Below the pieces are notes generated by a model that saw nothing but the letters and a program-made list of their open reading frames with translations, made no database searches and had not been told where the DNA came from. Source: Bacillota bacterium (lineage in GTDB: Bacteria > Bacillota > Sulfobacillia > UBA995 > UBA9673). Taken from it: a stretch of 57,611 nucleotides of DNA. Location of the stretch: NCBI GenBank assembly GCA_003599345.1, contig QZJP01000049.1, forward strand, positions 1 through 57,611, in the 5' to 3' direction. The position numbers and the translations under genes were made by a program. Below are positions 5,771 through 56,382 of this stretch, in pieces. Positions within the stretch are counted from its first letter, which is position 1, and every line of letters begins with the position of its first letter.

Positions 5771-5915
5771 GGGGCGGTCTCCTTTCCTCGGCCGCCCCTT
5801 AGGATACCCTGGCTAGAAAGTCCGACCCCGCGGACCACTCGCGCAACGTCCAGCCCCGCGGACAGCTGTTTGCGACCGCCGCATTTGCCCAGGCACTAGG
5901 CCACGGCGGCCAAGC

Positions 5916-6548: not shown

Positions 6549-6642
6549 GTGCAGGAATCGACCCTACCGCAGGGCGATTATAACACGTCGTGTTGGTCAC
6601 AATGCGCCTGCGAGGGAACAGAGGGGAGAGGGGGAAGCACCG

Positions 6643-7913: not shown

Positions 7914-8720
7914 ATGGACTCCGGATACATCCGTGCCGACTTCCGGAACCTTCTCGAGGTACAGGAATTGGACTCCGAGATTGCGAGGCGCCGGGCCGCC
8001 ATCGAGCATAGCCTCAACGACCCCGAGGTGACAAGGCTCCGGGAGCTTGTCAAGCGGGCCGCGGAGGCCGCGTCCGCCGCCAAGGAACGGGTCGCGACCC
8101 TGAAGCGGGCCATCTCGTGGGAAGAGAAGGAAGCCGACGGCATCCGCGAACAGATAACCTCCGCCGAGCGCAAGATGTATGGCGGCCATGTCGCCAACCC
8201 TAAGGAACTCGACCAGATGCAGAAGAAGGTTGAGCAGCAACGAAAGGACCTGGGCCGGCACGAAGAGGCCGCGCTCGAAGCGATGATGGAACTCGAGGAA
8301 GCCGCCCCGGAGCTCGACCAGGCCGATGCGACTCTGGCGCGGGCCGGCGAGGAGCTGGCGAAGGCCGAGGCCGAGAACAAGGCGACCGCGGCCACCCTCG
8401 AGGCCGAGATACGGGAGATAGAGCCGCGCCGCGCGGATGCGGCCGCCCGGGTTCCCGCGGGCCTCATGTCACGCTACGAGCAGATTCGCGACAGGAGGGG
8501 CGGCTTGGGCGTAGCCGCACTCACCCCTGACGGCTTGTGCGGGGCGTGCCTCATCAAGGTCCCCGCGATACTGGCCGAGACGGCCCGCAAGGGCGCTCTG
8601 GAGGTCTGCGAGAGCTGTGGGCGGCTCCTCGTGGGGCCCAAGCAGGCCCTCGACGCGGCCGGCCCCGGCGAGCCCGGCGGGCGGGACGCCACCACCGGCG
8701 GCGCCGGAGGCGGAGCGTGA
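7914..8720 (+). CDS. C4-type zinc-ribbon coiled-coil protein (DUF164 family)
   Basis: LLEVQELD start, long coiled coil, YEQIR, CGAC...CESCGRLL. Typical position after nif3. Confidence 0.92.
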   Translation: MDSGYIRADFRNLLEVQELDSEIARRRAAIEHSLNDPEVTRLRELVKRAAEAASAAKERVATLKRAISWEEKEADGIREQITSAERKMYGGHVANPKELDQMQKKVEQQRKDLGRHEEAALEAMMELEEAAPELDQADATLARAGEELAKAEAENKATAATLEAEIREIEPRRADAAARVPAGLMSRYEQIRDRRGGLGVAALTPDGLCGACLIKVPAILAETARKGALEVCESCGRLLVGPKQALDAAGPGEPGGRDATTGGAGGGA

Positions 8721-30427: not shown

Positions 30428-31542
30428 TACGGCAGGGGCACATCGGCCGGTCCCAGGCGATCCTGCTGGTCTGGTACGTTCTTGCCACCAAGGTCTTCTT
30501 GAATGTCCCGTCGTCCTTGCTTTCCGAGGCTTTCAGCGCGGCATGGCTCGTGACACTGGGTGGGGGGGTCGTCGCCTTCCTAGGCCTGGTTCCCGCCGTG
30601 ACGCTTATGAGGAGGTTCGAGGACATGCCCTTGGCTAGAGTTCTCGACGAAGCGGGGGGTCTGGTGCTGGGTAAGATTGCATCCCTCGGGGCTTCGGTGA
30701 CTCTCCTGGCCATTCTGGGGGTGGCACTCAGGGAGTTCGGCGAGTCGGTCACTATAAGTACTCTCTCCCGGACCCCCATGAACATCATTATGGTTACCTT
30801 TGTTGCCCTAGTAGGCTATTCGGCCTACAGCGGCATCGAGAGCAGTGGGCGCCTTACCACGTTCCTGACACCGTTCCTCCTCATCCTTTTCGGGTTAATC
30901 CTCTTCAGCGACATCTCCGACCTCAACCTCAGGCAGATCTTCCCGCTCTTGGGTCCCGGCCCGGGTAGGCTCGCTGTATCGATGCTCACCCGCAGCTCGA
31001 TCTACGCGGAGGTCATGGTTATGCTCATTCTCTACCCGTACTTGCGTGAACGTCGGGACGCCCTGGCCGTCGCCACATGGGCCCTTGCTCTCGGGGTAGC
31101 GGTGCTGACCACGACGGAGGTGATAATAAGCAGCGCCTTTGGTATCGAAGGCAGCGAGCGCCTCCTCTTCCCGTTTCTTCAGTTGGCCAGGCTGAGCACC
31201 CTTGGGCGGTTTGTCACCAGGCTGGATCCATTGTTTGTCTTCCTGTCGTTTTTTGCGGCGGCCCTCTCGTTCAGCACCGTCCTGTGGGCCGCGGTAACCC
31301 ACTTGGCGGAGGCATTGAGGCTCAAAGACCACAGGCCCCTCATCGCCCCCATCAGCGCTGTCGTCGTCGCGGGCGGGCTACTTCCACGCTGCCTGTTGAA
31401 CGTAATCGACATATCGTTCGGGGTCATCTACATGTGGGCCTGGATACCGTTGGTGCTCCTACCGGGCCTGTTCCTGCCCCTTGCGGTCTTGCGCGGAAAG
31501 AAGGGGACGGCCACGGCAGGGCCGGGAGGCGGGCGGCGTTGA
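30424..31542 (+). CDS. Spore germination receptor subunit B (GerB/GerKB, APC superfamily)
   Basis: About 10 TMs with AAW, TP, GIE and FVTRLD motifs; lies between gerA and gerC. Confidence 0.9.
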   Translation: MIRQGHIGRSQAILLVWYVLATKVFLNVPSSLLSEAFSAAWLVTLGGGVVAFLGLVPAVTLMRRFEDMPLARVLDEAGGLVLGKIASLGASVTLLAILGVALREFGESVTISTLSRTPMNIIMVTFVALVGYSAYSGIESSGRLTTFLTPFLLILFGLILFSDISDLNLRQIFPLLGPGPGRLAVSMLTRSSIYAEVMVMLILYPYLRERRDALAVATWALALGVAVLTTTEVIISSAFGIEGSERLLFPFLQLARLSTLGRFVTRLDPLFVFLSFFAAALSFSTVLWAAVTHLAEALRLKDHRPLIAPISAVVVAGGLLPRCLLNVIDISFGVIYMWAWIPLVLLPGLFLPLAVLRGKKGTATAGPGGGRR

Positions 31543-41022: not shown

Positions 41023-41814
41023 ATGACGGGGCGGGATAGGCGTGAGCGGGTCGGGCTCACGCTAACCGTGCTGGGGGCTACGTCCCCCTACCCGGGTCCC
41101 GGAACCTCGGGCCCGGGGTATCTCCTGGAAGGCTTCGGTGCGCGCATTCTTCTCGACTGCGGGAGCGGCGTGCTGTCCAGGCTAGCCTACCACTCCGATT
41201 ACGCCGATCTCGACGCGGTCATCATCAGTCATCTTCACTTCGACCACTGCTCCGATATGCTGGTTCTGCGCTACGCGCTCGACGCCGCCGCCCGCGCCGG
41301 GCGCCTGATCGAGCCGGTACCCGTCTGGTGCCCGACCGAACCCGCCGACGTAGCCGGTCTGATGAGCTACAAGGAAGCCCTCCGGGCCGTGCCCATCACT
41401 CCGAACGAGCCAACCGACATCGCCGGCCTCACGGCGACTTTCATCCCTGTGAGGCATCCCATTCCGACCTACGGGGTCATCCTGCGACCGTCCAAGGCGC
41501 CGGCAGTCGGTTCGCTCCTGTTCTACACCGCGGACACCGAATGGATGGACGAGCTTCCCGGCCTCGTAGGCGACTGCGAGATTCTTGTCGCGGAGGCCAG
41601 TCTCACCGCCAAGCAGGGCGTGCTCGGACCCAAGGTCGGCCACATGACGGCTGGGGAGGCTGCCCGCCTAGGCGGCATGACCAACGCGAGGACCATCGTC
41701 CTCACCCACTATCCACCCGGTCGCCGTGAAGAAGACATACTCCACGAGGCAAAGCGGGTCCTGGCCCGCCCGGTCCTCGTCGCCACGGAAGGCCTGCGGG
41801 TCGAGTGGCCGTGA
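41023..41814 (+). CDS. MBL-fold metallo-hydrolase (YhfI/RNase Z-like)
   Basis: LLDCGSG, SHLHFDH, HP, YTADT, GHMT and LTHY motifs. Confidence 0.92.
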   Translation: MTGRDRRERVGLTLTVLGATSPYPGPGTSGPGYLLEGFGARILLDCGSGVLSRLAYHSDYADLDAVIISHLHFDHCSDMLVLRYALDAAARAGRLIEPVPVWCPTEPADVAGLMSYKEALRAVPITPNEPTDIAGLTATFIPVRHPIPTYGVILRPSKAPAVGSLLFYTADTEWMDELPGLVGDCEILVAEASLTAKQGVLGPKVGHMTAGEAARLGGMTNARTIVLTHYPPGRREEDILHEAKRVLARPVLVATEGLRVEWP

Positions 41815-41863
41815 GTGGCTGTGGCAACTTAAGCACTCGGTGACTTCGGAGACGGAACGCAGC

Positions 41864-42483
41864 ATGACAGTCGTTGTCGAAGAAGCGACGACCCCCCGCC
41901 ACATCAGGACCTTCATCCGCCTGGAAGCTCTACCGGGGGGTCTCGTGGCTGAAGGCGCGCGGGGCGACGTGGGTCGGGGGTCCGGTGTCGCCGATCGTCG
42001 ACATCAAGCGGATCGCCGACTGGGCCATGCCCGCTAAGTGGTCGGACGTCGTTCCCCCGACCATCGCGGAACTGCGGGAAATGGGGCGAAAGCTGCGCCC
42101 GCCGGCCGACCCCGGCCTCTGCTACATAGCCCGCGCCAACGACGGCGACGAGCTCATCGGCGTCATCATCGCCTTGCCGGACTACAACCAGGTCCTGGCC
42201 AAGCTCAACGGCCGGCTGTTCCCGTCAGGCTTTCTCAAGTTCCTCTGGTACAGGCGGAGCATAGACGGCACCCGGTTCTTTGTGGGGTTCGTCGTTCCGG
42301 AGTGGAGGAAAAGGGGTGACCGGGGCCATCTTCCTCCACTCCGCCCGTGCCGCCCTTCGCCGTGGCTACAAGTGGGCCGAGGGGTCGACTATCGGTGAGA
42401 CCAATCTTCCGATGCGCCGCGACGCCGAACGCGCGGGCGGCCGCCACTACAGGACCTACCGCATCTACCGGAAGCCGATCTAG
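41864..42483 (+). pseudogene. Decayed GNAT N-acetyltransferase (YghO-like)
   Basis: Fragments in shifting frames: MTVVVEE..FIRL / WKLYRG..ALPDYNQVLAKLNGRLFP..VVPEWRKRG / VTGAIF..AEGSTIGETNLPM..YRIYRKPI. Frameshifts near 41920 and 42315. Confidence 0.75.
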
Positions 42484-42711
42484 GACTCTCGCCGAAGCCG
42501 ATCCAGGACTCCCGGCCCCTCTTCCCCCGCCCCAGTTATGGGGTGGACTGCCTCTTCCGACCTAAGGCGACATAATTCTTCCGCTTTCGAGAAGGAAACC
42601 CAGGGGTGTCAGCGAAACGGTTGCAGGTTACGTGTCTCTAGGTGTGCTTTCTCTGAACCGAGCCGCGGGTGGACTCGCAGCGTGCGGAATCGGGTGTAGG
42701 GAGGAGCCGGC

Positions 42712-44619
42712 GTGAAGATACCCAAGAAGCGCCTTGGGGAGGCCCTGGTCAGCGCTGGCCTGCTAACCCCTGAGCAGCTCGAACGCGCCATAGAGCTCCA
42801 GAGGTCGTCGGGAAAGCGCATAGGCGAGGTCATCATCAGCATGGGACTCATCGACGAGGACCGGCTGGGGCGTGTCCTCGCCCAGGAACTCGGTATCCCG
42901 TTCATCCCCGAACGCGAGGTGGAGGTTAAGCCCGAGGCGGCTCAACTCATCAACGAGCAGGCCGCTCGGCGCTACCGCGCGGTCCCCATCGACCGCCGGG
43001 GCCAGACCATCATCCTGGCCATGGCCGACCCCCAGAACGTCTTCGCCTTGGACGATGTGGCCTTCATCACGGGCTGCGAGGTCCAGCCGGTAGTCACCAC
43101 CGAGAAGGGCATCGACCGCGCGATTTACATGGCCTACCGCCGCGGCACCGGCCCCGACGCGGACGTCCGGACGGGTCCCGGAGTCCAGCGCCGGTCGGGT
43201 GCTCCACCAATCGCCACCACGAGGGCCCCCTCCCGGCCCGGGCGCGTCTCAGGACCAGCCGGGACCGTGGTACCCCTCCCGCAGGCGCCGACATCTCTCG
43301 GCGTGGGCGGCGCCCTCGGCGCCGGGGCGGCCGCGTTGGCCGGGACCGACCAATCGAAGCAGTCGTTCGCGGATATCGAGGCCGAGCTCAGCGGCGCCGC
43401 GTTCAAGGCGGCGGCGGTCAAGACCGAGGTCGAGGCCGCCGACGAGGCCCCGATAGTCCGGCTCGTCAACCAGATTATCGACCAGGCCATCGAACAGGGC
43501 GCGACCGACATCCACATAGAGCCCGATGAAACCTTCTTTCGCGTGCGCTACCGTATCGACGGCATGCTGCGCGACGTGATGAACAGGCCCATCGAGCTCC
43601 ACGCCCCCACGTCCTCGCGCATCAAGATCATGGCCAGTATGGACATCTCTGAACGCCGCCTGCCGCAGGACGGGCGCATCCAGCTCCGGGACCAGAAGCG
43701 AGACGTGGACCTTCGCGTGTCCAGCATCCCGACCATCTACGGCGAGAAGCTGGCCCTGCGCATCCTCGACAAGCGCCGGACGATAGCCAAGCTCGACAAT
43801 ATCGGCTTCCATCCGGACGACCTCGGCAAGTTCCGGGACGGCATCTCCAGGCCCCACGGGATGATTCTCGTGACGGGTCCGACCGGGAGCGGCAAGACCA
43901 CCACGCTCATGGCGGCCCTGCGCGAGCTGAACACGCCCGACAAGAACATCGTGACCCTCGAGGACCCCGTCGAGTACCAGATTCAGGGCATCAACCAGGT
44001 CATGATCAACGAGAAGGCCGGCCTGACGTTCGCGCGCGGTCTCAGGGCCTTCGTCCGCCAAGACCCGAACATCATCATGGTCGGCGAGATACGCGATTCC
44101 GAGACGGCCGAGATTGCCGTCCGCTCCGCCCTCACCGGCCATCTCGTCCTATCAACCATCCACACGAACGACGCCATCGGCGCTGTCTCGCGGCTCCTGG
44201 ACATGGGAGTCGAACCCTTCCTTATCGCGTCGACGCTCCTGTGTGTCGTGTCGCAACGCCTGGCGAGGATGCTCTGCCCCAAGTGCAAGATCCCCATAGA
44301 TCTGCCGGACGGCGACCCGGTCCGCGTCAGCTTGGGCCTCGACGACAGCGGGCCTGTCACGGTCTACGAGGCCCCGGGTTGCTCCCATTGCGGCGGCACC
44401 GGCTATCGCGGCCGTGTCGCCATCTTCGAGTTGTTCCACATCACCTCCAGAATCAGGCAGCTCATCGCAAGTCGGGCGCCCATCCAGGAAATAACTAAGG
44501 AGGCAAACCGGTCCGGCATGAGATCCCTCCAGAAGGACGGGGTCGAAAAAGCCGTCCAGGGAGTCACCAGCCTGACCGAAGTGCAGCGGGTCACCTATTC
44601 CGAGGAGTTGCCCACGTGA
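42712..44619 (+). CDS. pilB: Type IV pilus assembly ATPase with N-terminal MshEN domain
   Basis: RLGEALVSAGLL...LERAIELQ, DIHIEP, RLPQDGR, GPTGSGKTTT, RQDPNIIMVGEIRD and CPKC/CSHC zinc sites. Confidence 0.95.
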   Translation: MKIPKKRLGEALVSAGLLTPEQLERAIELQRSSGKRIGEVIISMGLIDEDRLGRVLAQELGIPFIPEREVEVKPEAAQLINEQAARRYRAVPIDRRGQTIILAMADPQNVFALDDVAFITGCEVQPVVTTEKGIDRAIYMAYRRGTGPDADVRTGPGVQRRSGAPPIATTRAPSRPGRVSGPAGTVVPLPQAPTSLGVGGALGAGAAALAGTDQSKQSFADIEAELSGAAFKAAAVKTEVEAADEAPIVRLVNQIIDQAIEQGATDIHIEPDETFFRVRYRIDGMLRDVMNRPIELHAPTSSRIKIMASMDISERRLPQDGRIQLRDQKRDVDLRVSSIPTIYGEKLALRILDKRRTIAKLDNIGFHPDDLGKFRDGISRPHGMILVTGPTGSGKTTTLMAALRELNTPDKNIVTLEDPVEYQIQGINQVMINEKAGLTFARGLRAFVRQDPNIIMVGEIRDSETAEIAVRSALTGHLVLSTIHTNDAIGAVSRLLDMGVEPFLIASTLLCVVSQRLARMLCPKCKIPIDLPDGDPVRVSLGLDDSGPVTVYEAPGCSHCGGTGYRGRVAIFELFHITSRIRQLIASRAPIQEITKEANRSGMRSLQKDGVEKAVQGVTSLTEVQRVTYSEELPT

Positions 44620-45929
44620 CAGAAACCGAGGGAACCCTGTACCACGTGACGTCGCGGTCCGAGGCCGCGGCCAGCACCGAGTTCGACGCCAACAACCTAC
44701 TGGAGGTATCTTCGAGGCATGAGGCCTCCGACCTCATCCTCACGGTCGGGGCCCCCCCGACCATGCGGGTCAACGACGACCTGGTCGCCATCGGCGGGAC
44801 CAAACTGGAGCAGAACGATTGCGAGGCCCTCCTCTACCAGATGCTCCATCCCGACCTCGCGGCCAAGTTCGAGCGTAGAGGCGAGATCGACTTCGCCTAC
44901 AGCATCCCCGGGGTGGGCCGCTACCGTGTCAACGGTTTCCGGCAACGGGGTTCGGTGGCCATTGTCGCCCGCGTCATTCCCCCGCGGATAAAGACCATCT
45001 CGGAACTCGGGCTCCCGGACGTGGTCACGAGCCTCGCCCGGCGCCCCAACGGCATCATCCTGGTCACGGGACCTACCGGGAGCGGTAAGACGACGACCCT
45101 GGCGGCCATGATCGACCTCATCAACACCGAGCGGGCCTGCCACATCGTGACCCTGGAGGACCCCATCGAGTATCTTCATCGCCACAAGAGGAGCATCATC
45201 AACCAGCGTGAGATAGGGAAGGACACCCGGACGTTCACGAGCGGGTTACGGTCGGCCCTGCGTGAGAACCCGGACGTCATCCTTGTCGGCGAAATGCGCG
45301 ACCTTGAGACCATCGCCATCGCCATGACCGCTGCCGAGACAGGCCACCTGGTCCTGGCGACCTTGCACACGAGCGACGCCGCGCAGACCGTCGACCGCGT
45401 CATCGACGTCTTCCCGCCCCACCAGCAAGACCAAATCCGCATCCAGCTCGCGGCCACTCTCCAGGGCATCCTGGCTCAGACCCTGGTGCTCAAGCGGGAC
45501 GGCACGGCCAGGGTGGCGGCCTTCGAGATTCTCATCGCCACGCCGGCCATCCGCAACCTCATCCGGGAGGGCAAGACCTACCAGATACCCACCCAGATAC
45601 AGACCGGCGGCCGCTTCGGGATGAGGACGATGGAGGCCTCGTTGAGGGAGCTCGTCTCGTCCGGCGCCATCTCCGAGGACCAGTACAGGAGCCGCCTGGC
45701 CCACCTGGCTGCGACCGGGGTCTTCGTGCCTCCCGCCGCTCTTGGCGCCAGCGCCGGTACGGGTCCTTACGGGGCCGCGGCCGGTGGGACGACCGGTGCC
45801 GTGGGGGCGGCAGCCGGGACGGGCGGGCCGGCGTACGGACTGGTGGGGGGTAACCCGTCAGGGGCCAGCCCCTCCGGAAGAGCGGGAGGCGTCGCGCCGC
45901 GCGGAGCCTACAGGCCCCGCTCCGGCTGA
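44616..45929 (+). CDS. pilT: Type IV pilus retraction ATPase
   Basis: GPTGSGKTTTL, EDPIE, LRENPDVILVGEMRD, AETGHLV and AIRNLIRE motifs. Confidence 0.95.
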   Translation: MTETEGTLYHVTSRSEAAASTEFDANNLLEVSSRHEASDLILTVGAPPTMRVNDDLVAIGGTKLEQNDCEALLYQMLHPDLAAKFERRGEIDFAYSIPGVGRYRVNGFRQRGSVAIVARVIPPRIKTISELGLPDVVTSLARRPNGIILVTGPTGSGKTTTLAAMIDLINTERACHIVTLEDPIEYLHRHKRSIINQREIGKDTRTFTSGLRSALRENPDVILVGEMRDLETIAIAMTAAETGHLVLATLHTSDAAQTVDRVIDVFPPHQQDQIRIQLAATLQGILAQTLVLKRDGTARVAAFEILIATPAIRNLIREGKTYQIPTQIQTGGRFGMRTMEASLRELVSSGAISEDQYRSRLAHLAATGVFVPPAALGASAGTGPYGAAAGGTTGAVGAAAGTGGPAYGLVGGNPSGASPSGRAGGVAPRGAYRPRSG

Positions 45930-45955
45930 GCACACGCGTGGGAAGGGTCTAGGCC

Positions 45956-47245
45956 ATGCCCGTATACCGCTACCGCGCCAAGACCTCACAGGGCCGGACC
46001 ATGGAGGGGACGGTCGAGGCTCCCGACCAGCGGGAAGCCGCCCGCACCCTCAGGGGCCGCGGCCTCTATGTGACGTCCATTGCCGACAGCCGCGAGGCGG
46101 CGGTGAACGTCCTGGCCCGGCCGCCCGCGCGCGCGTCCCGGGCGCGGCTCGCGGCGGTAGCCATGGAAGATCCGGCCCGGCGGCAGGGGCTCGGCTTCGC
46201 CCGGCCCCGCGTGAGCCTCAAGGACCTCGCTCTCTTCTGCCGCCAGTTCGCGACGATGATCAACGCCGGCGTGGCCATCCTCACGACCCTCAACATCCTC
46301 GCGCGCCAGGCGGCGTCGAGGCGGCTCCGAACGGCGCTGAACGAAGTGGCCCTGTCCATCGAACGCGGGCAGTCGCTCAGCGACTCGTTCCGCGCGCGCC
46401 CGGATGTCTTCCCGCCCCTCATCGTGAACATGTCCGCGGCCGGTGAGGCGGGCGGCATCCTGGAGGAATGCTTCGACCGCCTGGCCGACCACTTCGAGAA
46501 GGAGCACGCTGTCACCCAGAAGGTGCGTTCGGCCATGGTCTACCCCACCGTGGTCAGCCTCGTGGCCATCGGCGTGGTGACCTTCATGGTCGTCTTCGTC
46601 CTGCCCAACTTCATCTCCATCTTCGCCCAGATCGGCGCGGAGTTGCCCGGGCCGACCAGGGTAGTGATGGCCATCAGCGACTTCATCCGGGGCTACTGGT
46701 ACGCGCTCCTGGCCGCCATCGTGGTCCTCGTCATCGGGCTCCGCGTCTACGCGAGCACGGGCCGGGGAGCCTACATGGTCGACTCGTTCCTGCTCCACCT
46801 GCCGGCCTTCGGCGACGTGCTCCTCAAGCGGGCCGTCTCCCGGTTCGCCCGGACTCTGGGCACCCTCCTGAGGAGCGGTGTTCCGCTTCTCGTGTCCATG
46901 GCCGTCGTCCGGAGGACCGTAGGGAGCCGCCCGCTCGCGGTAGCCATCCTGGCCGCCGAGGACGAGATACGGGCGGGGCACGGCATCGTGGAGCCGCTGA
47001 GGGCTTCGGGGCTTTTCCCGCAGATGGTGCTCGAAATGGTGACTGTCGGCGAAGAGACCGGCGCGATAGACGCGATGCTCTCCAAGGTGGCCGACTTCTA
47101 CGACAAGGAGATAGACGTCACCCTCGAGCGCCTGGCGAACATGATCGAACCCGTGGTCATGCTGTTCGTCGGCGCCATAGTCGGGTTCATCCTTGTCTCG
47201 CTCATCATGCCGATGTTCGACATGTACAGCCAGCTGGACCTGTAA
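45956..47245 (+). CDS. pilC: Type IV pilus platform protein (GspF family)
   Basis: FCRQFATMINAG, AGEAGG, SAMVYP, VGEETG and MIEP motifs. Confidence 0.95.
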   Translation: MPVYRYRAKTSQGRTMEGTVEAPDQREAARTLRGRGLYVTSIADSREAAVNVLARPPARASRARLAAVAMEDPARRQGLGFARPRVSLKDLALFCRQFATMINAGVAILTTLNILARQAASRRLRTALNEVALSIERGQSLSDSFRARPDVFPPLIVNMSAAGEAGGILEECFDRLADHFEKEHAVTQKVRSAMVYPTVVSLVAIGVVTFMVVFVLPNFISIFAQIGAELPGPTRVVMAISDFIRGYWYALLAAIVVLVIGLRVYASTGRGAYMVDSFLLHLPAFGDVLLKRAVSRFARTLGTLLRSGVPLLVSMAVVRRTVGSRPLAVAILAAEDEIRAGHGIVEPLRASGLFPQMVLEMVTVGEETGAIDAMLSKVADFYDKEIDVTLERLANMIEPVVMLFVGAIVGFILVSLIMPMFDMYSQLDL

Positions 47246-47322
47246 ATGGTTCCGATAAGGACTTAGTGACTGATAAGCATAGCAGGTGGATGCACATTTG
47301 TGGCGAAACCCGTAAATAGTGG

Positions 47323-47351
47323 TTGACACGGTAGACCTGTCCTGCTAGATT
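47323..47351 (+). promoter_or_regulatory. SigA promoter of the major pilin gene
   Basis: TTGACA-17 bp-TAGATT with an extended -10 TG. Strong RBS GGGAGGTG precedes the ATG. Confidence 0.75.
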
Positions 47352-47426
47352 GGATGGGTTCTCTAGCACCAGCTACCAGGGGTCTCAAGCGGGCTACCGT
47401 TAATCCGATAGGGAGGTGAACAAGAG

Positions 47427-48041
47427 ATGGCAATCCGCAAGCACCTGTCTGGCCAGAAGGGCTTCACCCTCATCGAACTACTCGTTGTCGTGGCCATCCT
47501 TGGCATCCTGGTTGGGCTGGCGGCGCCCCGCGTTCTCAGTGCCATCGACAACGCTAGGGCCCGTCGAGCCGAGGCCGACATGGTGGTCATCAGGGATGCG
47601 CTCGAGAGGTTCTACTTGGACTGGGGTATCTTCTCCCCTGACCTCTACTACCTGATCAGCGAAGACTACATCGACCCGAACTTCTCGTTCAAGAACAGCT
47701 ACGGCAACTACTACTTCTACGCCGTGCGGGTGAACGAGACTAACGACCCGAACAGCCCCAACTACGCCGACTACGTCCTGGGGGACCCGGGGCAGACGCC
47801 GTTGGCTGCCGGGACCTACGACGCCGATGAAGTCTGCCAAGGCCTCTACACTACCGACCACGACGTGTGGATCTGGGGAACCTGGGCTACTGCACCTTCG
47901 GGATTGGCGACTTCGGTGACCGCGAACAACTCCCAGACGGGGCAGAACAAGACCTTCAACTTGGAGGTAACCTTGCTGACGATAACGCCGGCAACGAAGC
48001 CCTCAAGCACGGCCATCAAGTACAGCGGTCAGCAGCCCTAG
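47427..48041 (+). CDS. pilA: Type IV prepilin, probably the major pilin
   Basis: Class III signal KG|FTLIELLVVVAILGIL with Glu at +5. Has its own promoter and a downstream hairpin. Confidence 0.88.
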   Translation: MAIRKHLSGQKGFTLIELLVVVAILGILVGLAAPRVLSAIDNARARRAEADMVVIRDALERFYLDWGIFSPDLYYLISEDYIDPNFSFKNSYGNYYFYAVRVNETNDPNSPNYADYVLGDPGQTPLAAGTYDADEVCQGLYTTDHDVWIWGTWATAPSGLATSVTANNSQTGQNKTFNLEVTLLTITPATKPSSTAIKYSGQQP

Positions 48042-48086
48042 GGAGCTTCTAGAGTCGTATCAGAACCGGATATCCGGAAGCAGGAG

Positions 48087-48119
48087 TTCGGGGCGGGTCG
48101 GAAAGCGGCCCGCCCCGAG
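48087..48119 (+). terminator. Stable hairpin after the pilin gene (terminator or mRNA stabiliser)
   Basis: TTCGGGGCGGGTCG-GAAAG-CGGCCCGCCCCGAG; weak U tract. Confidence 0.6.
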
Positions 48120-48311
48120 TTCACAGAGTGGGACGTTTAGGGAGCGCAAGCTCCCCGCGGCCGCAACCGTCGCCCGTGTTGCCGTCGCCCGTGATGCCCG
48201 GCCTCAAGCGACGTGGAGCAGGACCGTTCCCTACTGGAATAGTAGGAAGTAACAGGTTCGGCCGCGAAGTTTGTTACATAAGGGGAGATTAAGGGGGAGG
48301 GGGAGGGCGGC

Positions 48312-51300
48312 ATGTCGCCTTCTCGCCGGCCGTACCGCGAGGAGATCGCGCCCAGGCGACGCAGTTCCCTCCGTGGTCTCCTCACTTTCCTTGGGATTCT
48401 GCTCCTCCTGGGTGGCGTGGCCCTCGGTGTCCTCGTCCTGAGCCCCGGCCTGGCGAGTCTCATCCCCGGCCCGGTCGGTGAACGGCTCAACGTGATAGCC
48501 ACGAGCGGCCGGGGTTGGCTCGAAGGCCTCATCTCCGATGAAGGGGCCCTCGGAGCCGTTCGGCAATTCGTCGAGCCCTACCTCTCCAAGCTGGGACTCA
48601 ACCTCACCACCGTCCTCTTGGGTATGGGCCTTCTTCTCCTGGCGGTCATCTGCATCCGAATTCTCGCCGTCACCTCGAGGGTTGAGAGACCGGAGAGCGA
48701 GGACGAGGTCTTCGGCGAGGACGGTAAGGGTCCCGGCGAGGGTGGGCGCAGCCCGTATTGGCCGTATGAGAAGCGGCCCGCGGCCCGCAAGTCGGGAGCC
48801 CTCATGTCGGGTACACGGCTCACACCTGACCGGCCCGTAGGGGCCGCGTTCGACACGAGCGCGGCCCGGGGGTCCGGACCCGGAGCGATGGGGCCGGATT
48901 TCGGGACGGGCAACGAGCAGGCCTACGCGACGGGCGGCGAACCGGCCTACGGGGCTGGCGAAGCGGATTTCGCGACCGGCCCCACACCGGGGTTTGAGAC
49001 CGTACCCGCGGCGGAGGCCTTCGACGCCGGGCCTCCTTCCGAGGCCGTGCCTCACAGAGACGCCGCTCTAGACTTCTCCCTCCCGGATACGGCGACCGGT
49101 GACGCGTGGCCCCTGGTTCGTCCCCGGTCGATTCCGAGTCCCGAGCCCGTCGCTCATGGCGTTGAGCGCGGCGAGGGCATCGAGCCCGGTCGAGACGCCA
49201 CTACACATTCCCCGCCCGCCGAAGTGACCATGGGCGACCACGCCGCCGGTGAGGCCTTGCCTGCGCCCGGCCCCGAAGAGATGGGACCCGGCCTTGGGGA
49301 CCTTGGTGAGGAGCCGGAGTCGCGTGCGGCCGGGGGTCTCTCGTTCGATGCCGAGTTCGCCCCGGAGGAGGCCTTCGGCGGTGAAGAGGAGGCCCTTCCG
49401 CCGCGCCACGCGGTCGCACCGGCAGGCCCGGGGACAGCTCTGACTGGTGAGCCGGCTTCCGGCGAGCGACCAGGCCCGGGGCCCTTCGCGCCACCGGCCC
49501 CGGAGCCGGGTCTTCCGGGCGTGGGCCAGCCCGCACCCACGGCCGGGGCGGGCGAGGCCGCCTACTATCCGCCTGCCGGCTATCCTCAGCCACCGGTGGC
49601 GCGGTCGCGCACGGAGCCTGGGGTGGGGCAGCCCGTCCCTTCACTGTCCCATGAGGGGGAATACCCCTCAGAGGACTACCTGGCGGACATGCCGGCCCCG
49701 GCGTTCCCGCCGCCCACTTTCCCGAGGCCGGGTGTCGAGCCGTTCGGCCCGCCCCCCACCCCACAGCGCGCACGGGAGGCGTGGGTGGAAGGCAGGCCTA
49801 GCCTCGGCGCGGGGCTCCGGAAGTTCGCCTTCCCGGGCTTCGTCCTCATGGCTCTGGGAGCCGGGGGGGCCTACGGTCTTCAGACCCCGTTGGCGGCCTA
49901 CATCACGGGCGGGCCCTACGGCCAGTACCTCCTCGCCAGCGCCGCGGCCGTTCTCAGCATGGGTGTTGGGCTATGGTTCATGAACGGGCCGATGCGTCCC
50001 GTGGTGAGCCGGATGGCCCCCGGCTTCCCCGGCGTCGGAGGCCGGGCCGCGGCGGAGGCCGCAGCCGCGATGGCCCCCGGGCGCGGGTTCCCGGCGCAGG
50101 GGCCTCCGGTGAGCGCGAGGCCGCCGAGGCCCGCGTTCCGGTCCGTGGGCCCGGCGCCGATTCCCGGGCGGGCCGCTCTCGAGAGCGGTCTAGAGGCTCC
50201 CGACGCCATTGACTGGGGTAGGCTACCCAAACCTTCCGTGTTCATCCCCTGGAGCCAGGCCGGGACCACCATCGGTCTTGACATCGGCGCCGCCTGGATG
50301 AAGGCGGTGCAGGTCGGTCCCGGTCGTCACGGCCTGGAAATCGTGAACCTAGGCCTCTGCCCCACCCCCGAGGGCGTCGTCGGCGAGGACGGCATAAGTG
50401 ACCCGGACCTACTCGGCGAGGCCGTCAAGGACTTGCTTCAAAGCAGGAATATCATCCAGCGGGAAGTTGTGACCGCCCTCGGCGGGCAGGGGGTCATCAT
50501 CCGCCACGTCCAGTTCCCGGTGATGAGCCCGGACGAGTTGCGCGAGGTCCTGCGGTGGGAGGCGGAGCACCACATCCCGATTCCGCCGCCCGAGGCCGTG
50601 GTCGACTTCACGGTCATGCCCGGCCAGGGAGACTCGGACGAGCGGGGCAACCGCCAGATGCGGGTCATGCTCGTCGGCGCTCAGAAGAAGGTCGTCGAAG
50701 ACCAGATAGCCGCCTTGAGGCGGGCCAAGCTGGTGCCGAGGGGTGTCGACGCGGAAGCCCTGGCGTGTTTCCGTGTCGTCCAGGCGGCCGGGCACTTCGT
50801 CGAGGACCCTCTGCGCTACGCGCAGGCCGTCATCGATCTCGGTCACTCCTCGACGAAGCTCGGCATCTATCTCAGGGGCGCTCTCGAGATGAGCCGCACC
50901 CTGGGCATCGGCGGCCGCGCCCTCACGCAGGTGCTGGTCGAGAAGTTGCGGGTTCCGGAGGTCGAGGCCGAGACGCTCAAGCGGCAGTACGGCGTCCTTC
51001 CGGAAGGCGGGAGAGTCACCGCCGCCCTGAGCCCGACCCTTCAGGACCTCATGTTCGAGATCAGGCGATCGTTCGAGTTCTTCTCCTCGCGTCACTTCGG
51101 GCAGTCCGTGAGGCACGTCTACCTGATAGGCGGAGGGGCCCGCATGCCCGGGATAGTCCAAGCCCTCGGCCGTTACCTCAACCCGTCCCTCGGCGAGAGG
51201 ATCCCGGAGGGGGCGGCTATCGGGGTGGAACTCGTCGACCCGCTGTCAGCCGTGGGCCTCCACCCGCGGCTCTACGACCAGGCCGACCTCATCGGGACCG

Positions 51301-51365
51301 AGTTCGTGACGGCCCTAGGCCTCGCCTTGTCCGAAGAGGAGGAGGGCCCCGCGCATGAAGGTTAA
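48312..51365 (+). CDS. pilM: Type IV pilus assembly protein PilM with a ~650-aa membrane-anchored, low-complexity N-terminal extension
   Basis: C-terminal actin-like PilM domain: IGLDIG, LRWEAEHHIP, IDLGHSST, IGG, EIRRSFEFF, YLIGGGA and TALGLAL. Followed by pilN and pilO. Confidence 0.88.
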   Translation: MSPSRRPYREEIAPRRRSSLRGLLTFLGILLLLGGVALGVLVLSPGLASLIPGPVGERLNVIATSGRGWLEGLISDEGALGAVRQFVEPYLSKLGLNLTTVLLGMGLLLLAVICIRILAVTSRVERPESEDEVFGEDGKGPGEGGRSPYWPYEKRPAARKSGALMSGTRLTPDRPVGAAFDTSAARGSGPGAMGPDFGTGNEQAYATGGEPAYGAGEADFATGPTPGFETVPAAEAFDAGPPSEAVPHRDAALDFSLPDTATGDAWPLVRPRSIPSPEPVAHGVERGEGIEPGRDATTHSPPAEVTMGDHAAGEALPAPGPEEMGPGLGDLGEEPESRAAGGLSFDAEFAPEEAFGGEEEALPPRHAVAPAGPGTALTGEPASGERPGPGPFAPPAPEPGLPGVGQPAPTAGAGEAAYYPPAGYPQPPVARSRTEPGVGQPVPSLSHEGEYPSEDYLADMPAPAFPPPTFPRPGVEPFGPPPTPQRAREAWVEGRPSLGAGLRKFAFPGFVLMALGAGGAYGLQTPLAAYITGGPYGQYLLASAAAVLSMGVGLWFMNGPMRPVVSRMAPGFPGVGGRAAAEAAAAMAPGRGFPAQGPPVSARPPRPAFRSVGPAPIPGRAALESGLEAPDAIDWGRLPKPSVFIPWSQAGTTIGLDIGAAWMKAVQVGPGRHGLEIVNLGLCPTPEGVVGEDGISDPDLLGEAVKDLLQSRNIIQREVVTALGGQGVIIRHVQFPVMSPDELREVLRWEAEHHIPIPPPEAVVDFTVMPGQGDSDERGNRQMRVMLVGAQKKVVEDQIAALRRAKLVPRGVDAEALACFRVVQAAGHFVEDPLRYAQAVIDLGHSSTKLGIYLRGALEMSRTLGIGGRALTQVLVEKLRVPEVEAETLKRQYGVLPEGGRVTAALSPTLQDLMFEIRRSFEFFSSRHFGQSVRHVYLIGGGARMPGIVQALGRYLNPSLGERIPEGAAIGVELVDPLSAVGLHPRLYDQADLIGTEFVTALGLALSEEEEGPAHEG

Positions 51366-51903
51366 CCTCCTCCCCTACCAGCTCGCTCAGAAGGCGGGTC
51401 CCAACTGGCGCACCATTTTCCTGCTCGGCGGGATGGTCCTCCTCGCGGGCGTGACCCTCATCTTCTACGTGGCCCTACAGGGACAGGTCAACAAGTTCAT
51501 GGCCGACATCGCCGCCGTGAAGCGGGACTACGAGCAGTACACCGCGGCCCTGGAGCGAAAGGCCACCCTGGACCAACTCCAGGCCTCCTACACGGAGAAG
51601 CAGGGCTTCATCATGCAGTTGTCCGGGGAAGGCGTCAAGTGGAACGACATCATGGACGAGCTGCGGAGCATCATCCCCAAGACGGTCGTCCTCGACACGG
51701 TGTCCAGTGACGAAACCGGGCACATGGTGCTGGAAGGGCGGGCCGGCGGGCTGATAGCCCTATCGCAGTTCCACAATAACATCCAAGACTCGGCGACCAT
51801 GGCCGCGCCGGACGTGAAGAGTGTGCTCTGGGACATAGAGGGCGCGTTCTTCAAGTTCGTTCTCGAGTGCGACGCGAAACAGGCGGTGGGCGACGGTGGC
51901 TAG
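51355..51903 (+). CDS. pilN: Type IV pilus assembly protein PilN
   Basis: N-terminal VNLLP PilM-binding motif, TM, coiled coil and ferredoxin-like domain. Confidence 0.88.
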   Translation: MKVNLLPYQLAQKAGPNWRTIFLLGGMVLLAGVTLIFYVALQGQVNKFMADIAAVKRDYEQYTAALERKATLDQLQASYTEKQGFIMQLSGEGVKWNDIMDELRSIIPKTVVLDTVSSDETGHMVLEGRAGGLIALSQFHNNIQDSATMAAPDVKSVLWDIEGAFFKFVLECDAKQAVGDGG

Positions 51904-52618
51904 CCCCGAACCGCGCTCCGGCTTCATGAGGTTTCGCCCACTGACAGGGCGCGAGCAGGTCGTCCTGGTCGTGCTCTTCCTCATCCTCTACGCCGTGGCC
52001 TTCGGTCTTTGGGTCTACCGGCCCTTCACCGAGACCATATCCGACCTCAGAGACAGGCTCACGGTCGAGCGTGAGAAACTCATGGCAGCCCAAGCCATCT
52101 TCCACCGTCTCGACGACATCAACGCCAGGATAGCCGAGCTCAACGCGGCCGTGGCCGAACTCGACCTCCTGGTGCCCGGCAATAGCCGGCAGGCGCACTT
52201 CCTCTACGCCTGCGGGCAGTGGGAGCGCCTGACCGGCGCTCGGGTCCGGGAAATGGTCTTCACGGCCCCGTCCGACATCGGCGGCTACGAGGAGTACATG
52301 GTGACGTTCACGGTAGTCGGGAGCTACACGGCCCAGGTCAAGTTCCTCGCAGAGCTCGAGGGGATGGACAGGCTGGTCAGGGTGGACAACGTCTCTCTCC
52401 TGCCGACCGACGCCACCCAGGCCGGCACGGGTGGCGGCGAGGACGGGGGCGGCGCGGGCGGGGGGCAGCAGTATGCCACCGCCGACGTGGTAACCGCCCG
52501 CTACGTGGTTCACCTCTTCGTCGACCCGAGTAAGGCCGCGCAGGCCGCCGCCGAGAGCCCCGGCGAAGGCTTGACCTTCACGCTCTCGGAGGGCCGCTCG
52601 ACGCCCTTCATCCCCTAG
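51896..52618 (+). CDS. pilO: Type IV pilus assembly protein PilO
   Basis: TM, coiled coil, GSY..FLAELEGMDRLVRV and terminal GRSTPF. Confidence 0.85.
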   Translation: MASPEPRSGFMRFRPLTGREQVVLVVLFLILYAVAFGLWVYRPFTETISDLRDRLTVEREKLMAAQAIFHRLDDINARIAELNAAVAELDLLVPGNSRQAHFLYACGQWERLTGARVREMVFTAPSDIGGYEEYMVTFTVVGSYTAQVKFLAELEGMDRLVRVDNVSLLPTDATQAGTGGGEDGGGAGGGQQYATADVVTARYVVHLFVDPSKAAQAAAESPGEGLTFTLSEGRSTPFIP

Positions 52619-52842: not shown

Positions 52843-53562
52843 GTGTTGGTCCTTCACGCCTCGGGTCACGGCTCCGTCCGGACCGGCCCGGCCGCGCGCC
52901 GTCTAGGCCCACGGATGACCGCGCTGCTTGCGGCGGCGGCGGTGGGAGGTGTCGTACTGGTCGGAGCCCGGGCCATCGTGGCCACCGGGCCCCGAACCGT
53001 CCACTTCATCTACGTCCGCGAGGAGAACTCACTCGGCCTTGACAACCTGCCGCCGCCGGGGGGCGCCGCCGGCTCGTACCTCGACTCCTCGCGCGGGGTG
53101 GTTACCCTGCCGCCGGGCTCGGACCCGGTTTCCCGAGGGACGGGCGTGCTCGTCCTCAGAGAGACCTTCGCCGGTGGGGCGCTCGTCGAAGTCAAGGTTC
53201 TCTGCCTCGACGGGCTCAGCGGGGTTGTCGCCGGCCGGCAGGGGCCGGGCGCTCCGCCGGAGTGCGCTCTCCTAGCGGTGGATTTGTCCCTCTCACCGGC
53301 CGGCTCCGCGGGAAGCGGCAAGTGGTCCATCCGGGTGGAAACGCCGGTCGCGCCGGCGGCCGTGCTCGACCCCGGAAAGGAGTGGCGGCTGGCGGCCGTC
53401 CGCCGGGACGGCGAGGTCGTCCTCTTCGACGGAGGCGACCCGGGCTTCGCGGCGGAGGCCGTGGCGGCCTTTGCCGACGGCCGGCCGGTGAGCCTTCTGA
53501 GTGTCGTCAACTACGGGGCATGGGAAGCCGACAGGATAGAACTCTCGAGCTATGGGGGATAG
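52843..53562 (+). CDS. Hypothetical exported/single-TM protein
   Basis: 239 aa, GGGGGTGAG RBS, N-terminal hydrophobic helix; ends 3 bp before the next gene. Confidence 0.6.
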   Translation: MLVLHASGHGSVRTGPAARRLGPRMTALLAAAAVGGVVLVGARAIVATGPRTVHFIYVREENSLGLDNLPPPGGAAGSYLDSSRGVVTLPPGSDPVSRGTGVLVLRETFAGGALVEVKVLCLDGLSGVVAGRQGPGAPPECALLAVDLSLSPAGSAGSGKWSIRVETPVAPAAVLDPGKEWRLAAVRRDGEVVLFDGGDPGFAAEAVAAFADGRPVSLLSVVNYGAWEADRIELSSYGG

Positions 53563-53565
53563 GCG

Positions 53566-56382
53566 ATGCGCGGCGGGAATTACCTGCCCACTAAGGTCCG
53601 GTTTCGCTTGCGTCTAGTCTCCGCGGTAATCATCTGGGCCGTCGTCTTCTGCGCGGCGTCGCCCGGCGCGGCCGGCACGGGGTCCGACCCCACCGGAGGG
53701 AGGACTCCCGTCGTCCTCGTCCACGGGCTGACCTGTGGCGGCTCAAGGGTGTGGGGCGAGAGGTCGGGTTCAGGGAGGGGCCTGTACGCCGCCCTTCTCG
53801 GCGCGGGCTACGTCCCCGGACAGACCCTTTTCTGCTACGACTATGACAACCTGCCGGCCGCCGACTACGAAGCCCTAGCGAGGGTGGGGCTCGCGGCGAC
53901 GGTGGACCGGGTCCTCGCGGGCGGGGCGGCCTCCGGCACGCCGGGAGCCGGCGGCTTGGGGCGGTTCGACATGATAGCTTTCGGGACGGGGGCCCTGGTC
54001 GCCAGGTGCTGGGCGGCCACCGACCCCGCGGCCGGGAGCCTGAGGAACCTGGTTCTCATCGCCCCGCCCAACCACGGGATGTTCCAGGCCGACCTCCTCA
54101 AGGTGCTGTACCACACCGACCGCCTGGTGAAGCAGCCTGGGGCCGGCCCGGGTGGCGGCGCCGCCCCTGACGGCGGGTTCCCACCCAGGCCCCTTTTCGC
54201 GGGCGAGAACCAGTACGTGGCTGTGCGCGCCGGGCACTACCGCCTCCTCTACGGGGAATACGTCCTTCACGGCCGGATACTTGGCCAGGCGCCGGACGGG
54301 GCGCCACCGCCCACCTGGGAGGAATGGGTGGTCTCCGAGAGGCCGGAACTGGCCCGAGATCTTGTCTACGACTCCCAGGTCGAGCCCGACCCGCCGGGGG
54401 GCGGGCTGACCCTGGCCTACTACGAGATGCTCTCCCTGGAAGTAGGGCGCCAACTGTACCTGGCCGGGCTCGTCAGAAAGGAGAACAGGCCGGAGAGCGG
54501 GGCGGAGCCGCCCTCCCTCGATGGGCTCCTCGACGGTGACTGGGCGACCAGGCTGAAGGACTACCTCCTGCGTCTCGTCGTCGACTGGGGGACCCGGAAG
54601 GCCCGAGAGCTGTGGGCCAGGCACCGGTCGGGTATCGCCCTCACCATCGGCGAGCTCCTGACCGGGCTCGAACCCGGCGGCGCGGCCCTATCGAGATTGG
54701 TGCCGGAATACCTGGCTTTCCCCGGGGGGTCGGCCGCCCCGGTAGCGCCGCCGCCTGGAGTTGGACTGGTCCTCTGCAACGCGTTCCTCCACCGCCTCGG
54801 GTCGCGCGAGGCCGGGGCGCGCGGGAGCGATTCCCGCTACGTGACCGTGGCGGCCTCCTTCCCGGGGCTTCTGACCCTGCTCGGGCTCGACGTGGGGCCG
54901 AACGACCTCGTCATCGAGGCCGCGTCGGCGGTGGCCGAACCCCGACCGGCTGACGAGTTCCTCCTCGAAAGGGGGCTTCTCTGGGCCCACGGGCAGCTTC
55001 CGGGCAACGCCCGCCTCTTCGGTGACGTCCTCCGGGTCCTGGATAGGCCGGGGGCACGAGGCCCTGAAGGAAGTCCCGGAGGGGACGCTGAGGCCGGCCT
55101 GTCAGGCGGCGGCGCCGCGGCGCTGTGGAGTCCCGAGTACCGCGCGCTGGGGCTGGAGCCCGGACCCGTCGTGGTCCGGGTCGCAATCGGAGACCCCGCG
55201 GCGAGCGGCCTCGACGGGCTGAGACCGCTGGCCTGGCTCGCTGAAGACGGGGGCGCCCGGGAGGACCCGAGGCGGACGGGGCTAGAACCGGGCGCGGTGC
55301 CCGGCGTTGTTGACTGCATCGACCTTGCCCCCCAGGGGCGGGCCCTTGTGGGGACGCGCAGCCTGAATCTCTATGACGGGCTGGTCCTTGGTGTCCGGCT
55401 CGTGCCGGACCCTTCGGCGGGGCCCGGCTACCTCGTCATGGCCAGGTACCTCGGCCGTGATACCAGGGTGCCCTTCAACTACTCAGTGAGCCCGGCGGGA
55501 ACGGAAGGTTCGGCGAACCCGGAGGCAAGCCCAACGGACGACGCTGGCGACAGCGGCGACGCCGTCGACACCAGCGATGCCGGCGATACCGGCGGGCCGG
55601 GGGACACGGATGACACAGGCGACATGGGCGAGACAGGGGAATCGGGCGACGGGAGCTGCTCGCCTCCGGCAGGGACCGGCGACGGCCCGCGGACTCCTGG
55701 GGTGGAACCGCAAGCGGGTGCCGGCGGCCCGGACGGTTCTAGCGGGGAAGCGGTCCCAGGCCGGGCTGAGATAGTCCCGACGCTCGAACCGCCGCTCATC
55801 AATGTCATCAGGGTGACCAAGCTCACGACCGGCAAGCGGGAGGACCGCACGTATCATGCCGTATGGGAATGGGACTTCGGTGACGGGGAGCGGCTGACGG
55901 ATACGGACCCGACGCACACTCTGGTCACGGTCGAGCATACCTTTGCCGGCCCCGGGACCTACACCGTCCGGGCCAGGTCGATAGCCAACGACGGCCGTGT
56001 CCTCCGGGACCTCGAGTGGACGGTGGAGGCGACGGGGGGCTCGGGGCCGGGCGAGTCGGCGTTCACCTTCGAGGCCGAGACGATTGTCGAGCCCGTCGTG
56101 GTCCTCACGGTTGAAGGCCCGAAGAAGTGGGTGACCGGGAAGCCGGCCCGGTTCAAGGTGGTGGCCGAGGTCAGCTGGCCGCCGCGGACGCGCCGGCAGG
56201 TCATCCGGGCCTATCCGGGTTGGGAGTTCGATGTCGTGTGGGAGAAGCCCGGGACGTTCGAGGTCAGGGGAGCGGTGACCGTCAAGCAGAGCTACGAGTT
56301 CCCCGACCAGCGCATCACCGTCTACAACACCTACGTCACCGTGGTCACTGTTGAGGTGTTCACTCCCGGGCTGACCGAATAG
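53566..56382 (+). CDS. Secreted lipase-fold (alpha/beta) protein lacking the nucleophile Ser, with an acidic linker and a PKD domain
   Basis: Signal peptide, PVVLVHG, MIAFGTGALVAR, LVLIAPPNHG, NDLVI, AH, and PKD-like WEWDFGDG..HTFAGPGTYTV. Confidence 0.75.
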   Translation: MRGGNYLPTKVRFRLRLVSAVIIWAVVFCAASPGAAGTGSDPTGGRTPVVLVHGLTCGGSRVWGERSGSGRGLYAALLGAGYVPGQTLFCYDYDNLPAADYEALARVGLAATVDRVLAGGAASGTPGAGGLGRFDMIAFGTGALVARCWAATDPAAGSLRNLVLIAPPNHGMFQADLLKVLYHTDRLVKQPGAGPGGGAAPDGGFPPRPLFAGENQYVAVRAGHYRLLYGEYVLHGRILGQAPDGAPPPTWEEWVVSERPELARDLVYDSQVEPDPPGGGLTLAYYEMLSLEVGRQLYLAGLVRKENRPESGAEPPSLDGLLDGDWATRLKDYLLRLVVDWGTRKARELWARHRSGIALTIGELLTGLEPGGAALSRLVPEYLAFPGGSAAPVAPPPGVGLVLCNAFLHRLGSREAGARGSDSRYVTVAASFPGLLTLLGLDVGPNDLVIEAASAVAEPRPADEFLLERGLLWAHGQLPGNARLFGDVLRVLDRPGARGPEGSPGGDAEAGLSGGGAAALWSPEYRALGLEPGPVVVRVAIGDPAASGLDGLRPLAWLAEDGGAREDPRRTGLEPGAVPGVVDCIDLAPQGRALVGTRSLNLYDGLVLGVRLVPDPSAGPGYLVMARYLGRDTRVPFNYSVSPAGTEGSANPEASPTDDAGDSGDAVDTSDAGDTGGPGDTDDTGDMGETGESGDGSCSPPAGTGDGPRTPGVEPQAGAGGPDGSSGEAVPGRAEIVPTLEPPLINVIRVTKLTTGKREDRTYHAVWEWDFGDGERLTDTDPTHTLVTVEHTFAGPGTYTVRARSIANDGRVLRDLEWTVEATGGSGPGESAFTFEAETIVEPVVVLTVEGPKKWVTGKPARFKVVAEVSWPPRTRRQVIRAYPGWEFDVVWEKPGTFEVRGAVTVKQSYEFPDQRITVYNTYVTVVTVEVFTPGLTE

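Follow-up and report, generated by a model that had tools for sequence, protein, structure and literature searches.

We describe here the gene pilM of a Bacillota bacterium, located in a contig of 57,611 nucleotides (nt) (QZJP01000049.1; this whole stretch is called the window below, and coordinates refer to its forward strand unless stated otherwise). The open reading frame (ORF) at positions 48312..51365, stop codon included, runs on the forward strand as a single frame of 1017 amino acids (aa) without internal stops, and it joins a complete PilM domain to 651 upstream residues that contain four hydrophobic segments.

The actin-like ATP-binding domain of PilM occupies positions 50265..51332 (aa 652–1007), as delimited by Pfam, NCBIfam, and PDB matches. 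PF11104 (PilM_2) matches aa 655–1006 with E = 1.5e-37 and 129.8 bits against a cut-off of 27, covering profile positions 1–337 of 340, and the NCBIfam profile TIGR01175 (pilM) matches aa 652–1007 with 173.3 bits against a cut-off of 133, covering positions 4–346 of 348. In a sequence search of the PDB, aa ~653–1007 align end to end with PilM of T. thermophilus (2YCH, E = 4.5e-41), and the proteins of M. xanthus (3JC8, E = 4.5e-34) and P. aeruginosa (5EOX, E = 4.3e-25) are also found; the FtsA family PF14450 gives a weak match within the domain (aa 839–958). The motifs GLDIG, DLGHSSTK, and GGGA are invariant in all seven aligned sequences, as are D657/G659, D842–G844/T848, and G940–A943, which align to 2YCH and which we take to be the nucleotide-binding motifs of the actin fold.

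By every sequence criterion tested, the protein is a member of the PilM family, and it ends about 10 aa past the PilM domain. It does not have the typical soluble form of ~350–400 aa; since its length of 1017 aa and the four upstream hydrophobic segments are the very variation reported here, they are no argument against its identity as PilM. No second PilM was found in its own genome, which is 82% complete. The first 651 residues have no Pfam, NCBIfam, or PDB match: the best hit of aa 1–653 in the PDB sequence search has E = 0.96, and a Pfam search with pieces of the extension and with two extensions of a sister family gave nothing below E = 0.007, all of it far under the curated cut-offs.

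An earlier note on this DNA had placed the start of the PilM domain at about 50271 (aa ~654), in one frame with an upstream part made of two hydrophobic helices (aa ~22–43 and ~98–120), a long segment rich in Pro, Glu, Ala, and Gly, a second hydrophobic pair, and a Pro/Ala linker, and this is the layout that we find. Conservation was followed in a family of 15 sequences (819–1082 aa, two of them incomplete at the N-terminus; members were pooled from further searches), seven of which are full-length and were aligned. Transmembrane (TM) segments were called with a Kyte–Doolittle window of 19 aa and charge counts, not with a trained predictor, and hydropathy was scored helix by helix in five of the 15 sequences (the window and four relatives).

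The protein begins with a basic tail (48312..48374, aa 1–21), predicted to be cytoplasmic, which aligns across the seven sequences and has a net charge of +5 in the window and +2 to +6 in the six relatives. It is followed by TM1 (48375..48443, aa 22–44; hydropathy peak of 2.62 at aa 24–42), hydrophobic in seven of seven sequences, and by a conserved loop predicted to lie outside the cell membrane (48444..48602, aa 45–97), whose length is exactly 53 aa in all seven. Invariant residues of the loop and the start of TM2 include G78, L80, R84, P89, L91, L96, and L98. TM2 (48603..48674, aa 98–121; peak of 2.69 at aa 101–119) ends with the motif ICIRILAVT, present in 15/15 family members.

The following 373 residues (48675..49793, aa 122–494) form an acidic, Pro-rich disordered region between the two hairpins that is predicted to be cytoplasmic. 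It has a net charge of −34, contains 18% Pro, and consists to 59% of Pro, Glu, Ala, and Gly; in the relatives it measures 201–379 aa with net charges of −12 to −23. We found no Pfam match in this region and no sizeable tandem repeats; HubP-like repeats were looked for and rejected, with only four tiny arrays of ~2 copies. Three short motifs are embedded in it. SPYWPYxxRP (48750..48779, aa 147–156) has S147, Y149, W150, P151, Y152, and P156 invariant in seven of seven sequences, and the pattern [YG]WPY occurs in 15/15 family members; ATGDAWP (49092..49112, aa 261–267) has T262, G263, and D264 invariant in the same seven, with the pattern [TS]GD[AT] in 15/15; DYLADMPAP (49674..49700, aa 455–463) has P461 invariant, with a loose pattern in 14/15.

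The second hydrophobic pair (49794..49982, aa 495–557) consists of the basic lead-in RPSLGAGLRKF, TM3 (aa ~505–523), an uncharged turn AYGLQT...GGPYGQ, and TM4 (aa 539–557, score 1.73). The lead-in has a net charge of +3 to +4, and the TM3–TM4 hairpin is free of Lys and Arg in seven of seven sequences; the patterns RPxLGxGLRKF and GAGxAY are found in 15/15. A Pro/Ala-rich tether of 94 aa with 19% Pro (49983..50264, aa 558–651) then leads to the PilM domain. It ends with ...PDAxDWxxxPKPSxFIPWSQ, the pattern P(K/R)PSxFxP occurs in 15/15 family members, and the net charge of the stretch after TM4 is 0 to +6.

We infer an in-out-in-out-in topology from the charge distribution and from the need of PilM for a cytoplasmic site. 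In this topology, the N-terminus, the acidic region, the tether, and the PilM domain are predicted to lie inside; the charge pattern places the 53-aa loop and the short TM3–TM4 turn outside. Since PilM binds both ATP and the cytoplasmic tail of PilN, it has to reside in the cytoplasm (PMC4471445).

Coding evidence for the full-length frame

The G+C content of the region is 65–76%, and the window contains many long shadow ORFs, so that an open frame alone proves little. Antisense frames lie over pilM itself at 49154–49773 on the minus strand (128 and 190 codons), and in the related locus L015 at 4486–7848 on the minus strand (1120 codons); these are Arg/Pro/Gly-rich shadow ORFs typical of high-G+C DNA and not genes.

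The start of the frame is marked by a purine-rich ribosome-binding site with two GGAGG cores (48291..48307, forward strand), located 5 nt before the ATG at 48312, and similar sites precede the homologous ATG in the relatives L003 and L004. The seven full-length sequences align from their first residues, with invariant blocks from TM1 through the tether, and eight sequence patterns recur in the same order in 15/15 family members, with two looser patterns in 14/15. Nucleotide differences between the window and L003 (two relatives were compared) at codon positions 1/2/3 are.36/.28/.58 in aa 1–135 and.35/.33/.51 in aa 495–653, and the excess at third positions in both segments is a signature of selection on the pilM frame.

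Among 77 PilM loci from other phyla, many of which are of high G+C content, 73 have no more than 62 codons between the start of the open frame and the PilM domain; of the remaining four, three lack any start codon further than 46 codons upstream, and one is truncated by the contig end. The assembly is supported by two contigs: one, from a second sample, spans 48295–51400 with 0 differences and 0 gaps, and one, from a third sample, bridges the acidic region into the PilM domain; it should be noted that these samples belong to a single study and are not independent of the habitat.

The fusion also survives the check for a separate N-terminal gene. A three-sequence profile of the extension, searched against 1.84 billion representative proteins, gave six matches in total, among them three fused full-length proteins of 845–953 aa and the window gene itself in a 772-aa version. 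Two short candidates were rejected: P0007 (497 aa) is labeled "partial" by NCBI, comes from a 3567-nt contig, and clusters with an 878-aa full form, and P0011 (111 aa) departs from the family past the loop and resembles a fragment. P0018 and P0019, long PilM matches, carry C-terminal extensions and represent another architecture. Thus, no credible stand-alone N-terminal gene was found among these representative proteins by the profile search, and 15/15 family members are fused.

Judged by these sequence comparisons, the frame is coding from the ATG at 48312, and the fusion is not a high-G+C artefact. The case for translation of the acidic region rests on its conserved flanks and embedded motifs, not on its composition.

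The pilus locus and other anchored PilMs

The gene is part of a complete type IVa pilus cluster that lies entirely on the forward strand. Upstream are pilB (42712–44619), whose product has an MshEN domain, pilT (44616–45929), pilC (45956–47245), and a pilin gene (47427–48041). Downstream are pilN (51355..51903, PF05137), which overlaps the pilM stop by 11 nt, and pilO (51896..52618, PF04350, 22.9 bits against a cut-off of 22), followed by genes for a 239-aa protein that has a hydrophobic segment at its N-terminus and matches no family (52843–53562) and for a 938-aa protein whose sole match is a PKD domain near its C-terminus (53566–56382). The relative L015 has the same gene order, and the last two genes there show 41% and 47% identity; these two genes also follow pilMNO in L014. 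The 239-aa and 938-aa genes after pilMNO may be lineage-specific pilus parts.

The earlier note had also stated that PilN keeps its VNLLP docking motif, and the protein does start with MKVNLLPY. Among 16 loci with an anchored PilM, the strict pattern (I/V/L/M)N(L/I/F)(L/I/A/V)P occurs in PilN in 12 and close variants in three, and in the sole anchored locus without a docking peptide PilM bears a C-terminal extension. Retention of the peptide indicates that the anchor is an addition to PilN docking, not a substitute for it. As a separate observation, locus L126 (G145:C1, ~1993000–1997500) encodes a PilM with two predicted TM segments, a loop of ~60 aa, and ~180 extra C-terminal residues, and the next ORF has no NLLP-type start; this PilM may be both N-terminally anchored and fused to PilN.

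No secretin (0/6) and no Omp85 protein (0/6) was found in the genome of the window (82% complete) and five relatives (92–98% complete), and the window contains SLH-domain and spore-germination genes; by this gene content, the pilus machine is that of a one-membrane, Firmicutes-type cell without a secretin. The genes concerned lie at 188–3634 and 28550–31542 and encode a 1148-aa SLH-domain protein and germination proteins of the GerA and spore-permease types, which points to a spore-forming Firmicute with an S-layer. The pilM DNA occurs in groundwater metagenomes, and the organisms are uncultured.

Several further features of the window were recorded. The MshEN domain of PilB lies at aa 60–145 (E = 9.4e-20). 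Domains of this type bind c-di-GMP in some pilus ATPases, and its presence hints that assembly may be under second-messenger control. The 270-nt gap between the pilin gene and pilM folds with z = −4.2 and contains, ~40 nt past the pilin stop, a G+C-rich stem-loop of 17 base pairs (48084–48122); the stem-loop has no U tract and was not flagged by a consensus terminator scan. It may terminate transcription in part and thereby set the ratio of pilin to machinery transcripts. An Rfam scan of 41800–48400 gave only one sub-threshold snoRNA match, which we treated as chance. At 8537–10444, the longest ORF (635 aa) joins an RNase H/RVT_3-like N-terminal part to a PLP-dependent enzyme domain and may be two genes merged by the ORF rule or a real fusion.

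Membrane anchors upstream of the PilM domain are predicted in other families as well. In a sister family of the same order, the PilM frames are 638–744 aa long and encode, besides a basic Pro-rich tether, two predicted TM hairpins, and the turn of the second hairpin reads YLE(L/M)QW(Y/F)...APYRF. In other families of the class, PilM has three hairpins or a single one, which stands only 16 residues from the domain or is joined to it by a linker of 100–280 aa. In all, one or more TM segments are predicted upstream of the domain in 16 of 36 class loci from 10 GTDB families, and since these loci were picked for a high score or a long open frame, the fraction is not a prevalence. By the threshold used, 12 of the 16 have two or more upstream segments; of the other loci, three show a long extension in which no TM segment is predicted, and the remaining 17 are ordinary.

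In three genomes of one class family (loci L117, L124, and L125), PilM carries an N-terminal extension of 250–290 aa without predicted TM segments; the extension opens with a conserved segment rich in Pro and Leu (…GPLPL…WPLPAL…RYA.LPA…SLFSRP), and an acidic stretch comes next. The three genes group in a clade supported at 100%, and in them this end of PilM is elaborated in another way.

Anchored forms also turn up sporadically in the rest of the phylum. In a phylum-wide sample, only four of the 150 PilM matches listed from 301 genomes are in frames of at least 500 aa, the match in the window included. Five long-frame loci from outside the class comprise three with predicted TM anchors, one without, and one with no match, and one of the three anchors has a similar turn (…WLQMGAPYLQY…). 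Alignment of the membrane-proximal hairpins reveals a shared turn pattern, which AYGLQT…GGPYGQ of the window family fits.

In a tree of PilM domains (44 rows, quick IQ-TREE; 14 duplicate or contig-end-cut loci and two more cut loci were left out), all 16 anchored genes fall within one clade of 28 rows (SH-aLRT 93), and the PilMs of the other class clade and of the outgroups are ordinary. Position, topology, turn motif, and the domain tree make a common origin of the anchors plausible without demonstrating it. The tree requires at least six gains or losses of the anchor, only two of which are forced by well-supported branches, and homology between the hairpin of the window family and those of other families has no statistical support: an hhalign comparison of the extensions of the window family and the sister family aligns them hairpin to hairpin only, with E = 0.055 and a probability of ~1%. 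By predicted topology, the window architecture is the most elaborate of a wider hairpin-anchored group of PilMs. The earlier note had called it a new alignment-complex architecture; it is indeed real and unusual and is fused in 15/15 family members, but it is not unique to this genome.

Favored and alternative readings

The best explanation of these data, and one that we hold with good confidence, is that the gene encodes a genuine full-length PilM that would be an integral membrane protein. Several observations weigh against it. Public gene calls disagree: JGI/IMG and Logan give 1017 aa, and NCBI gives 772 aa from a GTG at codon 246, a call that lacks TM1, TM2, and the loop between them, all of which rank among the best-conserved parts. 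Within the acidic region, differences at the three codon positions (.43/.49/.63) are near saturation, and the GC content by codon position (~.87/.67/.75) fits an antisense frame about equally well. The hydropathy of TM3 is no more than marginal in the window (1.48; 1.54–1.86 in the four scored relatives), and the TM calls come from a simple scale. No RNA runs containing this DNA are listed.

A shorter product might exist beside the full-length one. In this case, internal initiation or cleavage of the tether would yield a soluble PilM, and the cell would then contain a fixed and an exchangeable pool of PilM. In the window, GGAGG precedes an in-frame ATG at codon 587, Met561, just past TM4, is invariant in seven of seven sequences, and long exposed linkers are often cleaved. 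Conservation lends internal initiation little support: neither the ATG at codon 587 nor its GGAGG is conserved, Met561 has no ribosome-binding site, L003 offers only the Met561 equivalent, likewise without a site, and L004 has no match. The GTG at 50238 (codon 643) lacks a ribosome-binding site and is replaced by Ile in five of six aligned relatives, and none of the internal starts seen in the window, L003, or L004 is both conserved and preceded by a ribosome-binding site. We consider a second product unlikely.

The acidic region might instead act as a cytoplasmic hub that recruits polarity or regulatory factors and fixes the site of the pilus, in the manner of FimV/HubP, a pilus-associated membrane protein whose cytoplasmic region is large, acidic, and of low complexity. 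The region of the window PilM is likewise large, acidic (in seven of seven sequences), and predicted to be cytoplasmic, and its three short conserved motifs stand in otherwise unalignable sequence, as expected of docking sites. In contrast to FimV/HubP, it has no acidic repeats, LysM domain, or FimV C-terminal motif (Pfam and NCBIfam searches of the whole protein and its pieces; repeat search), and the protein has four membrane segments, not one, and is fused to PilM. The anchored PilMs of the sister families have short or basic linkers, so that any hub role would be specific to the window family. The polar-landmark idea put forward in the earlier note has no support beyond the composition of an acidic disordered stretch, and we consider such a hub unlikely.

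The reading that the upstream 650 codons are a chance open frame and that PilM starts near its domain or at codon 246 agrees with the 772-aa call of NCBI, with the abundance of shadow ORFs (for example, 49201..49773 on the minus strand and the 1120-aa antisense ORF in L015), and with a GC content at third positions that is lower in the extension (0.73–0.81) than in the PilM domain (0.85–0.90), but it is very improbable given that the blocks 5′ of codon 246 (TM1, the 53-aa loop, TM2, and YWPY) are kept in 15/15 members at 52–63% identity, that differences are ordered position 3 > position 1 > position 2, that a ribosome-binding site stands before 48312 and none before the codon-643 GTG, and that the PilM frames of other phyla have no upstream extension.

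Possible role of the anchored PilM

The full-length, membrane-anchored PilM can be compared with several known systems. It shares with canonical PilM the complete domain (aa 652–1007), the nucleotide-binding motifs, the operon with pilN and pilO, and the NLLP-type peptide of PilN; relative to the 357–395 aa of the solved entries, it has 651 additional N-terminal residues with four hydrophobic segments. Canonical PilM reaches the membrane only through PilN (PMC4471445), and PilM–PilN docking and the equivalence to GspL are described in PMC4471445 and PMC6916266. In GspL and in the PilM–PilN fusions of C. difficile, a PilM-like cytoplasmic domain is covalently joined to a membrane segment (PMC4471445, PMC6916266), and this link is the likeness to the window protein. 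In those proteins, the membrane segment is C-terminal and continues into a PilN-like outer domain, whereas the window PilM has neither, is anchored at its N-terminus by hairpins unrelated to PilN, and keeps PilN as a separate protein.

FtsA, the closest relative of PilM in the actin family, is also actin-like, has its own membrane tether with a flexible linker, and binds a cytoplasmic peptide of the bitopic protein FtsN. Its tether is a C-terminal amphipathic helix, unlike the N-terminal transmembrane hairpins of the window PilM, and FtsA works in cell division.

According to the predicted topology, the N-terminus would lie inside, TM1 would exit the membrane, the 53-aa loop would be outside, and TM2 would return; the 373-aa acidic region would be cytoplasmic, TM3 and TM4 would form a tight hairpin with its uncharged turn outside, and the Pro/Ala tether of ~94 aa would let the PilM domain hang beneath the membrane. 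Each PilM protomer would then be fixed in the membrane by its own hairpins in addition to its binding to PilN. PilM is regarded as the stator socket where PilB and PilT dock and their movements are constrained (review, PMC11656802). In a one-membrane cell that has no PilP–PilQ link, the hairpins might serve as a permanent anchor of this stator. The membrane-proximal hairpin looks like the older, shared anchor, and the enlarged outside loop of the first hairpin and the long acidic region would be family-specific additions; the loop, the acidic region, and its three invariant motifs are candidate docking sites for partners. We offer stator anchoring and partner binding by the anchored PilM as hypotheses.

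A more specific model would make PilM a self-contained stator, anchor, and hub, in which the hairpins fix the PilM ring, the 53-aa loop couples it to PilN/PilO or to the cell wall in place of PilP–PilQ, and the motifs recruit PilB/PilT or positioning factors. We propose this combination tentatively and consider it rather doubtful as a whole; if it were true, an entire lineage would build type IV pili on a differently wired base.

How PilM, PilN, and PilO work in one-membrane bacteria is a named open question in the field (PMC6916266), and PilM has been treated as a soluble ring held under the membrane solely via the tail of PilN. In the literature searched, of which subscription journals and supplements were not part, we found no description of an N-terminally membrane-anchored PilM. 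The feature is also invisible in current annotation, since the 772-aa call of NCBI cuts off the first hairpin and the public names of these proteins read only "type IV pilus assembly protein PilM" or "hypothetical protein".

Taken together, these comparisons suggest an anchored PilM design that appears to be common to a small group of uncultured Firmicutes. That these groundwater bacteria are uncultured limits direct testing. The natural variants span a range from one hairpin with a 16-aa tether to the two-hairpin form with 651 aa, and they could be used to study the effects of tether length and anchoring on motor docking. A lineage that gives PilM hairpins of its own and retains the PilN peptide suggests that firm anchoring of the ring matters.

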